Shown piece by piece: positions 18,476-19,821 of a DNA stretch of 64,000 bases. Made by a program: the position numbers and the translations under genes. The notes beneath the pieces are model-generated. The model was not told where the DNA came from. It did not search any database and saw nothing but the letters and a program-made list of their open reading frames with translations. Numbering within the stretch: position 1 is the first letter of the stretch; each line of letters opens with the position of its first letter. The stretch is from Escherichia coli (GTDB lineage Bacteria > Pseudomonadota > Gammaproteobacteria > Enterobacterales > Enterobacteriaceae): assembly GCF_044324785.1 (NCBI RefSeq), contig NZ_CP172127.1; one strand, given 5' to 3'.

Positions 18476-19210
18476 ATGTCCAAACTCGATCTAAACGCCC
18501 TGAACGAACTGCCGAAGGTAGATCGCATTCTGGCGCTTGCAGAAACTAACGCCGAACTGGAAAAACTGGATGCTGAAGGCCGCGTTGCCTGGGCGCTGGA
18601 TAATCTGCCCGGTGAATATGTACTTTCTTCCAGTTTCGGCATTCAGGCGGCGGTGAGCCTGCATCTGGTGAATCAGATTCACCCGGATATCCCGGTGATC
18701 CTGACCGATACGGGTTATCTGTTCCCGGAAACCTACCGCTTTATTGACGTGTTAACGGACAAACTCAAGCTCAACCTGAAAGTGTACCGAGCTACCGAAA
18801 GCGCCGCCTGGCAGGAAGCACGCTACGGCAAACTGTGGGAGCAGGGCGTTGAAGGCATTGAAAAGTACAATGACATCAACAAAGTCGAACCGATGAACCG
18901 GGCGCTGAAAGAACTGAATGCGCAAACGTGGTTTGCTGGCCTGCGCCGCGAACAATCCGGCAGTCGCGCCAATTTACCGGTGCTGGCAATTCAGCGTGGC
19001 GTATTTAAAGTGCTGCCGATTATCGACTGGGATAACCGAACGATATATCAGTATCTGCAAAAACATGGCCTGAAATATCATCCATTATGGGACGAAGGAT
19101 ATTTATCCGTCGGTGATACCCATACAACCCGTAAATGGGAACCCGGCATGGCGGAAGAAGAAACGCGTTTCTTTGGCTTAAAAAGGGAATGTGGGCTGCA
19201 CGAAGGGTAA
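18476..19210 (+). CDS. cysH: Phosphoadenosine phosphosulfate (PAPS) reductase
   Basis: 244 aa from [13 protein letters not shown]; matches E. coli CysH; track ORF 18323.. is an upstream extension. Confidence 0.95.
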
Positions 19211-19227
19211 ATATTGCCGGATAAATT

Positions 19228-19265
19228 AAACGCCTCTGTCAGAAATGATGGGGGCGTTTTTATTT
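19228..19265 (+). terminator. Putative intrinsic terminator after cysH
   Basis: aaacgcc...ggcgttt stem (7 bp, long loop) followed by tttttatttt. Confidence 0.4.
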
Positions 19266-19474
19266 TGCGAGCAGCATTCCGGCATTTAAAGGTGAACATC
19301 GCAGGGAGAATTAACAGGTATAGAATGGAGTTGGGTGCTTGAGGCTGTCTGGCGTTAAGCATTCGCGAGGTTCCAGATGGACAAAAGCCCCAGGCGATAT
19401 TTCTATCAACCTGAGGCCAGCGTTCGAACCTAAGCAATTCGAATGTTAGTCTCTTCTTTGCAGGGAGGCAAGAC

Positions 19475-19627
19475 ATGCTGACAAAATATGCCCTTGTGGC
19501 AATCATCGTACTGTGTTGTACAGTACTGGGATTCACGCTGATGGTAGGCGACTCGTTGTGTGAGTTGAGTATCAGAGAACGTGGTATGGAGTTTAAGGCA
19601 GTTCTCGCTTACGAATCGAAGAAGTAG
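19475..19627 (+). CDS. Hok/Gef-family type I toxin (HokE-like), 50 aa
   Basis: ATG at 19475 with GGGAGG SD 7 nt upstream; product [50 protein letters not shown] has the family hallmarks (N-terminal TM helix, LCE and AYES motifs); below the 60-aa cutoff of the ORF track; GC stem-loop (19633-19654) just after the stop. Confidence 0.8.
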
Positions 19628-19821
19628 CCACCACGCGGGGGTAAAACCCCGCGTACTGAATTGTGATGGTTTGGTCTCCTGCACCCTTTTTTAATTTATA
19701 TTGTTTATGTGAATATTATGCCTATGTTTATTATTCATATATATTACGGATGAAAATTATTTGATTATTCATAATGTAAATATTTTATTGAACGATATAT
19801 ATCACAGATAATTTTTAATAT

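Follow-up and report, generated by a model that had tools for sequence, protein, structure and literature searches.

What does the DNA between cysH (18476-19210) and cas3 (19822-22521, the non-K-12 variant of the type I-E gene) encode in the 64,000-nucleotide stretch of Escherichia coli DNA analyzed here, referred to below as the window, and could the product still be made and held in check? A first-pass annotation recognized a 50-codon toxin gene there from the raw sequence, and raised the possibility of a functional toxin-antitoxin pair beside the CRISPR-Cas locus; the gene was missing from the track of open reading frames (ORFs) because a peptide of 50 amino acids (aa) falls below the usual listing cut-off of 60. 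The feature is very probably an intact chromosomal copy of the E. coli hokX/sokX locus (HokG in UniProt), which encodes a type I toxin-antitoxin pair.

Identity of the locus and its toxin gene

As a locus, hokX/sokX between cysH and cas3 is nothing new, having already been described and named. RefSeq annotates a coding sequence (CDS) at the identical coordinates as WP_000956458.1, a "Hok/Gef family protein," and the identical peptide is entered in UniProt as HOKG_ECO57, "Putative protein HokG," where it is recorded on at least 1000 contigs. The papers concerned with the locus at cysH name it hokX/sokX, and one of them (PMC7232551) treats the copy of NRG857c, in the cysH-iap region, as homologous to the E. 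coli B hokX. A search of 5426 complete E. coli genomes, with the CDS and its 3' untranslated region (UTR; 19475-19694) as the query, found the hokX CDS in 4220 of them (78%) at identities of at least 90%, and always on the chromosome; with the locus so common and already annotated, the novelty implied at first was lost. Literature searches for mokE, mokX, mokG, and hokG returned only the monacolin genes of Monascus.

The translation given by the first-pass annotation for the 50-codon ORF behind a GGGAGG Shine-Dalgarno (SD) sequence was exact; the ORF opens with ATG at 19475 and closes with TAG at 19625-19627. Its likeness to Hok toxins was borne out by profile search, in which residues 5-46 of the peptide matched all 42 positions of Pfam HOK_GEF (PF01848) with an i-Evalue of 6.3e-10; within the Hok family, it is closest to HokE. 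Scores against the NCBIfam subfamily models HokA (53 vs. 89 bits) and Hok (39.5 vs. 73 bits) both fell below the curated cut-offs, in agreement with the generic RefSeq name. The peptide fits the family pattern of approximately 50 aa with an N-terminal hydrophobic helix, a conserved Cys14, and, on the periplasmic side, Cys29 and Cys46, which may be DNA- or RNA-encoded; in HokX, Cys14, Cys15, and Cys29 are DNA-encoded, and the codon for Tyr46 lies within UACG. The roles of the Hok cysteines are known from work with HokB (PMC12214031).

At the level of RNA, family RF01794 of Rfam matched 19333-19490 with 111.7 bits (gathering score, 59), and it was the sole Rfam family to reach its gathering score within the whole window. 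The match lies on the plus strand and runs from the 5' end of the hok mRNA to the start codon; the Rfam "sok" model describes the hok leader, not the antisense RNA. Two other candidates, ctRNA_p42d and Spot_42 at 19168-19268, were weak, remained below the gathering score, and represent the terminator hairpin of cysH.

The HokX peptide is under purifying selection. Eight E. coli alleles were 2-8% divergent over the spacer, and the protein accession was nonetheless identical in every annotated allele; all seven of the polymorphisms within the CDS were synonymous. Across genera, comparison of hokX with nine relatives gave dN/dS values of 0.06-0.28 at dS values of up to approximately 1. A collection of phage sequences held no DNA similar to the hokX locus, and hence a prophage origin is unsupported. 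Over its 611 bp, the cysH-cas3 spacer matches that of E. coli strain N3 with 100% identity; the N3 genome differs from the window in CRISPR spacer content and by scattered SNPs; the annotated nlpD frameshift of N3 is absent from the window.

The hok transcript and its antisense RNA

The features recognized at the locus are collected in Table 1. Upstream, the intrinsic terminator of cysH (cysJIH) is almost unchanged among all E. coli alleles compared, and it shields the hok locus from upstream read-through. Beyond it lies a putative weak promoter with no clear -35 box. Ten loci belonging to several genera carry TAGAAT, TATGAT, or TAAGAT at the -10 position of this promoter, and conservation does not extend further upstream. 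Transcription of hok would start at G19333, seven bases past TAGAAT. In a scan that required nine of 12 consensus bases, neither this promoter nor that of Sok reached the threshold, and so the assignment of both rests on position and conservation.

Table 1. Features of the hokX/sokX locus, with positions in the window and the basis of each assignment.
Feature	Position	Strand	Basis or detail
Intrinsic terminator of cysH (cysJIH)	19228-19268	+	Terminator scan; 14-pair stem followed by a T-run
Putative weak hok promoter	19298-19332	+	Position and conservation; -10 TAGAAT at 19321-19326
Full-length hokX mRNA (5' leader, CDS, 3' UTR), ~361 nt	~19333-19693	+	Rfam start; cross-genus conservation
tac element	19333-19345	+	Pairs with fbi (19674-19686) in the MFE structure
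SokX antisense RNA, 59 nt	19435->19377	-	K-12 sokX (b4701) mapped by pairwise alignment
Predicted hairpin sequestering GAGG	19388-19416	+	MFE folds; GAGG 19413-19416 against GCCC 19388-19391 (ucb-like)
Putative Sok promoter	19443-19471	-	-35 TTGCCT (complement of 19466-19471), 17-nt spacer, -10 TAACAT (complement of 19443-19448)
12-codon leader ORF, candidate substitute for mok	19443-19481	+	Frame analysis
hok SD, GGGAGG	19463-19468	+	Read from the sequence; 6 nt ahead of the ATG
hokX (HokG) toxin CDS, 50 aa	19475-19627	+	ORF, Pfam, RefSeq, UniProt
UACG motif for TadA editing	19610-19613	+	Context match to the published site; edit of A19611 gives Tyr46->Cys
G+C-rich stem-loop after the stop codon	19633-19654	+	8-bp stem (19633-19640/19647-19654), 6-nt loop
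fbi and T-run, 3' end of the full-length mRNA	19674-19693	+	Pairing of fbi (19674-19686) with tac; T-run 19688-19693

The candidate leader had been placed by the first-pass annotation from 19370 onward. The transcribed locus instead begins at approximately 19333 and ends near 19693, as marked by the start of the RF01794 match and by conservation across genera, which sets in at 19333 and ceases at the T-run behind fbi; in strains now devoid of the cas genes, homology stops at 19694. Among the E. coli alleles the leader is invariant over 19333-19417, and variation is found in the promoter-proximal stretch and in the region of the Sok 5' tail.

The RNA so delimited has a minimum free energy (MFE) of -127.8 kcal/mol (z = -2.98 vs. 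shuffled sequences), and in its MFE structure 11 of the 13 positions of tac, which is invariant in the eight E. coli alleles, are paired in a helix with fbi; this joining of the ends is the defining trait of hok mRNAs. An RNAalifold consensus of nine loci of the HokX clade (from Escherichia, Kluyvera, Pluralibacter, and Enterobacter) retained the terminal stem-loop and the GAGG hairpin as well as this pairing of the ends. Of the 99 consensus pairs, 14 show compensatory changes, none of them within the tac/fbi helix, the elements of which vary so little that support from covariation is weak.

The GAGG of the leader aligns with the SD sequence of mok in hokC, hokB, and the hok of an IncFII plasmid. 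In MFE predictions for both the full-length and the nascent RNA it is paired with 19388-19391, and these pairs are invariant in the nine-locus alignment (columns 58-88). When the RNA was cut at 19656, the 5' end was predicted to fold locally and GAGG to shift its pairing to CUCU at 19450-19453. This modeled refolding is qualitatively like that of R1 (PMC9841398), where tac pairs with ucb, whereas the tac end of hokX would enter a local hairpin. The G+C-rich stem-loop that the first-pass annotation had placed directly after the stop codon is present with exactly the stem and loop of Table 1, and it is conserved, with one compensatory pair. It probably protects the processed (active) mRNA at its 3' end; in R1, mutation of the equivalent last stem-loop opens the mRNA to 3' exonucleases (PMC9841398).

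Opposite the leader, a cis-encoded Sok is present with its own putative promoter and terminator, as read from the sequence. The mapped stretch is identical at 57 of 59 nt to the ncRNA sokX (b4701) of K-12 MG1655, which is annotated antisense to the cysH/cas3 direction. Its fold (-22.7 kcal/mol, z = -3.57) has a single-stranded 5' tail and a long terminator hairpin followed by UUUUG. The -35 hexamer of its promoter overlaps the hok SD, the mapped start is at 19435, and both hexamers are conserved in 10 loci across genera. An antisense Sok and an overlapping mok frame had both been expected at the locus, with alignment to a plasmid hok proposed as the means of finding them. The expectation held for Sok and failed for mok, at least in its canonical form.

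Translation, toxicity, and editing of HokX

In hokB, hokC, and plasmid hok, the ATG of mok stands approximately 8 nt past GAGG and is overlapped by the 5' end of Sok. No ATG, GTG, or TTG was found at the aligned site of E. coli hokX, which reads TCG (19424-19426) in all E. coli alleles compared. The Kluyvera and Pluralibacter orthologues carry GTATGAAC, with an ATG, at this position. K-12 hokE, on the other hand, has neither a canonical mok ATG nor an annotated mok, and since it is an accepted member of the family, the missing start leaves the membership of hokX among hok/sok loci intact, although it does lower confidence in the synthesis of Hok from the native mRNA.

With R1, Hok synthesis requires translation of mok, which need go only up to the hok SD (PMC9841398), so that a much shorter frame could take the place of mok. 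The 12-codon leader ORF is the only frame that reads across the hok SD, and its TGA (19479-19481) overlaps the hok start in the arrangement ATGCTGA. It has no recognizable SD sequence. Six of the nine loci of the HokX clade share its geometry, and the homologous upstream ATG of K-12 hokE and of two further loci is in frame with hok. Conservation of the leader ATG is confounded, however, by its being the complement of the final three bases of the -10 hexamer of Sok. Any coupling that is needed would be supplied by this leader ORF, or else hok would be translated from its own strong SD; GGAGG is kept in all loci compared, 6-10 nt ahead of the ATG. A tentative and somewhat doubtful proposal is that mok has been lost in the hokX/hokE clade, that the leader ORF now opens the ribosome-binding site of hok, and that SokX blocks this mini-ORF from 8 nt upstream. 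If true, the coupling device of mok would here be reduced to a minimum. The lack of a canonical mok start in both hokX and hokE bears on the generality of the coupling model developed with R1.

The peptide itself has entered published experiments. A 2026 preprint on the diversity of Hok proteins includes a construct (LRP171, "46_982") that encodes the identical peptide and was cloned for a toxicity assay; its DNA is one synonymous base apart from the window. The preprint reports toxicity for 42 of the 45 homologues tested, and the three that it names as exceptions bear identifiers other than 46_982, which suggests, from the text and construct table of the preprint rather than from an individual result, that 46_982 is toxic. 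A literature search found no experiment on post-segregational killing or Sok-dependent repression for hokX.

Editing of the transcript has been observed directly. A 2025 study of UPEC reported WP_000956458.1 to be A-to-I edited (c.137A>G, p.Y46C) in the context GUUCUCGCUUACGAAUCGAAG, 21 nt that correspond to 19601-19621 of the window. Positions 19477-19496 and 19617-19636 of the window are exact matches to the "hokG" primers of that study. The extent of Y46C editing was 14.8% (188/1270 reads) and 23.6% (42/178 reads) in two UPEC isolates, and 10-37% across ten clinical UPEC isolates. The hokX mRNA is therefore expressed and a substrate of TadA, in UPEC isolates. With HokB, a Cys29-Cys46 disulfide is required for toxicity, and Cys46 of HokC, HokD, and HokE is RNA-encoded (PMC12214031); HokX, with a DNA-encoded Cys29 and UACG at Tyr46, conforms to this. 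The transcript of K-12 hokE undergoes editing of codon 46 (PMC12214031) even though the gene has no canonical mok ATG.

These elements can be arranged in a scheme that borrows its functional steps from R1. A weak promoter would give rise to the stable ~361-nt hok mRNA, which the tac-fbi pairing and the folded leader (as predicted) would keep both untranslated and free of bound antidote. Slow trimming of the 3' end to the stem-loop behind the stop codon would then free the 5' end and permit refolding of the leader. Short, unstable SokX, produced from a stronger promoter over the hok SD, would pair with the refolded leader and commit it to decay by RNase III. With a drop in SokX, the 50-aa Hok would be made and inserted into the inner membrane, leading to depolarization or killing. 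By analogy with HokB, editing of codon 46 from UAC to UIC by TadA would make a Cys29-Cys46 disulfide possible and may thereby raise toxicity.

The strongest competing view is that the locus has become a translationally silent relic, still transcribed and with its structure intact, from which Hok is never made and which is kept by drift or by some other role of the RNA. The change of the mok start to TCG in all E. coli alleles, where the Kluyvera and Pluralibacter orthologues retain ATG, is what would be expected of such a relic given the requirement for mok translation in R1 (PMC9841398). According to earlier studies cited by the 2026 preprint, the chromosomal hokA, hokB, and hokC did not confer post-segregational killing. 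Moreover, hok has been lost repeatedly: by deletion from the ATG in K-12, through the approximately 800 insertions described below, and in one class of strains without hok and cas3. Selection speaks otherwise, as the wholly synonymous polymorphism and the low dN/dS values imply a peptide that is translated and selected. The strong SD of hok at its 6-nt spacing, the conserved leader ORF ending at ATGCTGA, and the editing of hokE, which likewise does without a canonical mok ATG, further count against silence, and we consider the relic unlikely. The hokX/sokX pair, as the first-pass annotation had supposed, looks functional instead, in view of purifying selection, intact promoter-like boxes, the Sok terminator hairpin, and tac/fbi, and the published expression and editing are in keeping with this.

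The CRISPR-Cas neighborhood and comparison with known hok systems

Only 128 nt separate the 3' end of hok from the start of cas3, and the pair might thus be thought to safeguard the CRISPR-Cas locus by penalizing loss of the cas genes, as the CreTA RNA pairs do for archaeal type I-B systems. The distribution of hokX bears on this directly. Nearly all of the 5426 complete genomes match some part of the cysH-cas3 spacer, and the whole query, including the entire 3' UTR, was covered in 3419 of the 4220 genomes with the CDS. Approximately 800 genomes match only as far as query position 175 (19649 of the window); in such partial matches an IS186/IS421 element lies inside the G+C-rich stem-loop, as in ECO2947, where IS421 follows the equivalent of 19649. 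The site is of the same kind as the insertion sites in hokC and hokE of K-12. The arrangements encountered were cysH-hokX-cas3 with the non-K-12 variant (that of the window); cysH-hokX-iap, in which the entire cas locus is absent; cysH-hokX-IS421-cas3; cysH-hokX beside an inverted cas3; cysH-sokX-cas3 of the K-12 type; and cysH-casA, from which both hokX and cas3 have been lost. Aligned pairwise with the window, the spacer of K-12 agrees from cysH through the hok ATG (19477) and is fully divergent thereafter. By this alignment, K-12 keeps the hok promoter, leader, SD, and ATG as well as sokX, and has lost the coding sequence and 3' UTR, much as the first-pass annotation had stated in speaking of a sok remnant.

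Outside these strains, hokX directly follows cysH in Escherichia sp. E1V33, Kluyvera genomosp. 1, K. intermedia, and a Pluralibacter MAG, and neither cas3 nor casA was found in the available flanks of the E1V33, Kluyvera, and Pluralibacter orthologues. A scan of genome contigs with a 16-nt leader motif (GATATTTCTATCAACC), too short for 298 Gb, gave mostly chance matches, with approximately 11 usable Enterobacteriaceae loci among the matches listed.

A role in safeguarding cas genes is very improbable on this evidence. Apart from its adjacency to cas3, it could draw on K-12, where the toxin is lost and the antidote gene kept, as expected if loss of sok alone were harmful. K-12, however, has cas genes and no hok, while hokX is retained without any cas locus (cysH-hokX-iap) in approximately 23% of a spread sample and is lost together with cas3 in some strains. 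The orthologues after cysH, with neither cas3 nor casA in their available flanks, also stand against it. Published figures for UPEC give 90% with hok vs. 46% with type I-E cas genes, Hok loci in general are not enriched near defense systems (12% vs. 9.4% expected), and no Cas-dependent regulation is evident. The distribution, as drawn from coverage classes and a spread sample, the flanks of the orthologues, and this lack of enrichment tie hokX to the 3' end of cysH and make its adjacency to cas3 incidental; the position is an accident of the cas locus sitting between hokX and iap. A reading in which either minus-strand ORF (19430-19684, 84 aa; 19078-19536, 152 aa) is the true gene, and the 50-aa frame a product of chance, can be dismissed almost entirely, since, although both are longer than hok, the antisense frame that is open over hok in the window is broken by one to three stops in eight of the nine relatives, the hok frame shows synonymous substitutions, the Pfam and Rfam matches are on the plus strand, the 152-aa ORF runs antisense through the cysH end and terminator, and neither is annotated by RefSeq; the first-pass annotation had rightly set both aside as artifacts.

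The hokX locus marks a constant point where the variable CRISPR-Cas I-E region adjoins cysH; wherever cas genes were lost or replaced, or an IS was inserted, the boundaries coincide with the hokX ATG, stem-loop, or 3' end. Beyond its correct annotation the locus matters little, being common and named, and with its distribution, toxicity assays, and editing already covered in recent papers.

Relative to the known hokX/sokX of E. coli, nothing substantive differs: the peptide, the cysH-cas3/iap site, and sokX are the same. The window carries the intact form, without the IS186/IS421 insertion of the approximately 800 genomes, an insertion that is also carried by hokX of E. coli B (PMC7232551). 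More widely, the locus aligns over its full length with hokE, hokC, and hokB of K-12 and with the hok of an IncFII plasmid. The closest paralogue is hokE/sokE of K-12, likewise of 50 aa and placed with hokX in identity cluster 46 of the 2026 preprint. The two share leader blocks, the spacing from Sok to hok, the want of a canonical mok ATG, and UACG at codon 46. They are set apart by 14 non-synonymous differences, by the location of hokE at ybdK-entD, by the IS186 that follows the stem-loop of K-12 hokE and leaves it without fbi, and by the upstream ATG, which is in frame with hok in hokE and out of frame, with a stop at +7, in hokX.

With hok/sok (parB) of R1 and IncF plasmids, hokX has in common the gene order, the tac/fbi pairing, the predicted sequestration of GAGG, the 3' stem-loop, and an antisense RNA promoter that overlaps the hok SD. 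R1, however, has a mok of 70 codons that overlaps hok and is required for its translation, where hokX has none at that position, and the R1 Hok is a peptide of 52 aa, diverged in sequence from the 50 aa of HokX. Unlike the plasmid systems, hokX is chromosomal and without a demonstrated role in plasmid stabilization. The toxicity of the chromosomal hokB/sokB of K-12 is tuned through A-to-I editing by TadA, which creates a cysteine for the Cys29-Cys46 disulfide, and in this hokX would be similar. In hokB, which has an annotated mokB, it is codon 29 that is edited and Cys46 that is DNA-encoded; hokX has the reverse, an edited codon 46 and a Cys29 already present in the DNA.

Leader strand and variation

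The match of the Rfam model RF01794, named 'sok antitoxin', at 19333-19490 (+) has the orientation of the hok mRNA leader, running from its tac end to the start codon, and not that of the sokX RNA annotated in K-12 (window 19377-19435, -). Any strand assignment that relied on this model would consequently be wrong for 'sok'. Within E. coli, the sole variable part of the hok leader was found to be 19418-19442, the stretch to which the unpaired 5' tail of SokX is complementary; the 85 nt upstream of it are invariant, and alleles of the O157 type carry a 1-nt deletion within it. A change in this segment affects the two partners simultaneously, since the antisense RNA is encoded in cis.

No canonical mok start codon was present in E. 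coli hokX at the aligned position, 19424-19426, which reads TCG; this is unlike the hokX orthologues of Kluyvera and Pluralibacter, where the canonical codon is present. Instead, a conserved 12-codon leader ORF ending in ATGCTGA occupies 19443-19481, its conservation to be read with the caveat that the Sok -10 box includes its ATG. Within the hok coding sequence, the TadA motif coincides with a site of known editing: published RNA-seq of UPEC isolates revealed 10-37% Tyr46 to Cys editing in exactly the same protein, the gene there being named hokG.

Features of the hokX region and comparison loci
Feature	Location	Remarks
TadA motif UACG	19610-19613	encodes Tyr46 of HokX
IS insertion in hok stem-loop	L010 3439-4900; L005 1508; L006 732	comparison coordinates
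Type I-E CRISPR array, ~10 repeats	2200-2777	near queE/ygcE; 61-bp periodicity, repeat GTGTTCCCCGCGCCAGCGGGGATAAACCG
Type I-E CRISPR array, 11 repeats	28811-29456	between cas2 and iap; 61-bp periodicity, repeat GTGTTCCCCGCGCCAGCGGGGATAAACCG
mok-position/leader-ORF comparison loci	L083, L112, L031	

Strain differences

The spacers of both CRISPR arrays in the window differ in content from those of E. coli strain N3, and the window therefore belongs to another strain. In strain YZ22PE106 (L012 3481-6177), hokX is immediately followed by a cas3 annotated in the reverse orientation, suggesting that a segment was inverted and that one end of the inversion lies at the 3' boundary of hokX. K-12 (L003 215-585, aligned to window 19205-19477) retains the promoter of hok together with its leader, SD and ATG, joined to unrelated sequence approximately 80 bp upstream of the K-12-type cas3, and thus transcription from the hokX promoter may run on towards cas3 in this strain.

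Recurrent insertion in the 3' stem-loop

Insertion of IS186/IS421 was recurrent in the G+C stem-loop 3' of the hok stop (CGCGGGGGTAAAACCCCGCG), the point of insertion corresponding to window 19649/19650, and the fbi element is lost as a consequence. The hokX locus is interrupted at this point in approximately 800 of 5426 complete genomes. In K-12, the corresponding position is interrupted in both hokC and hokE.
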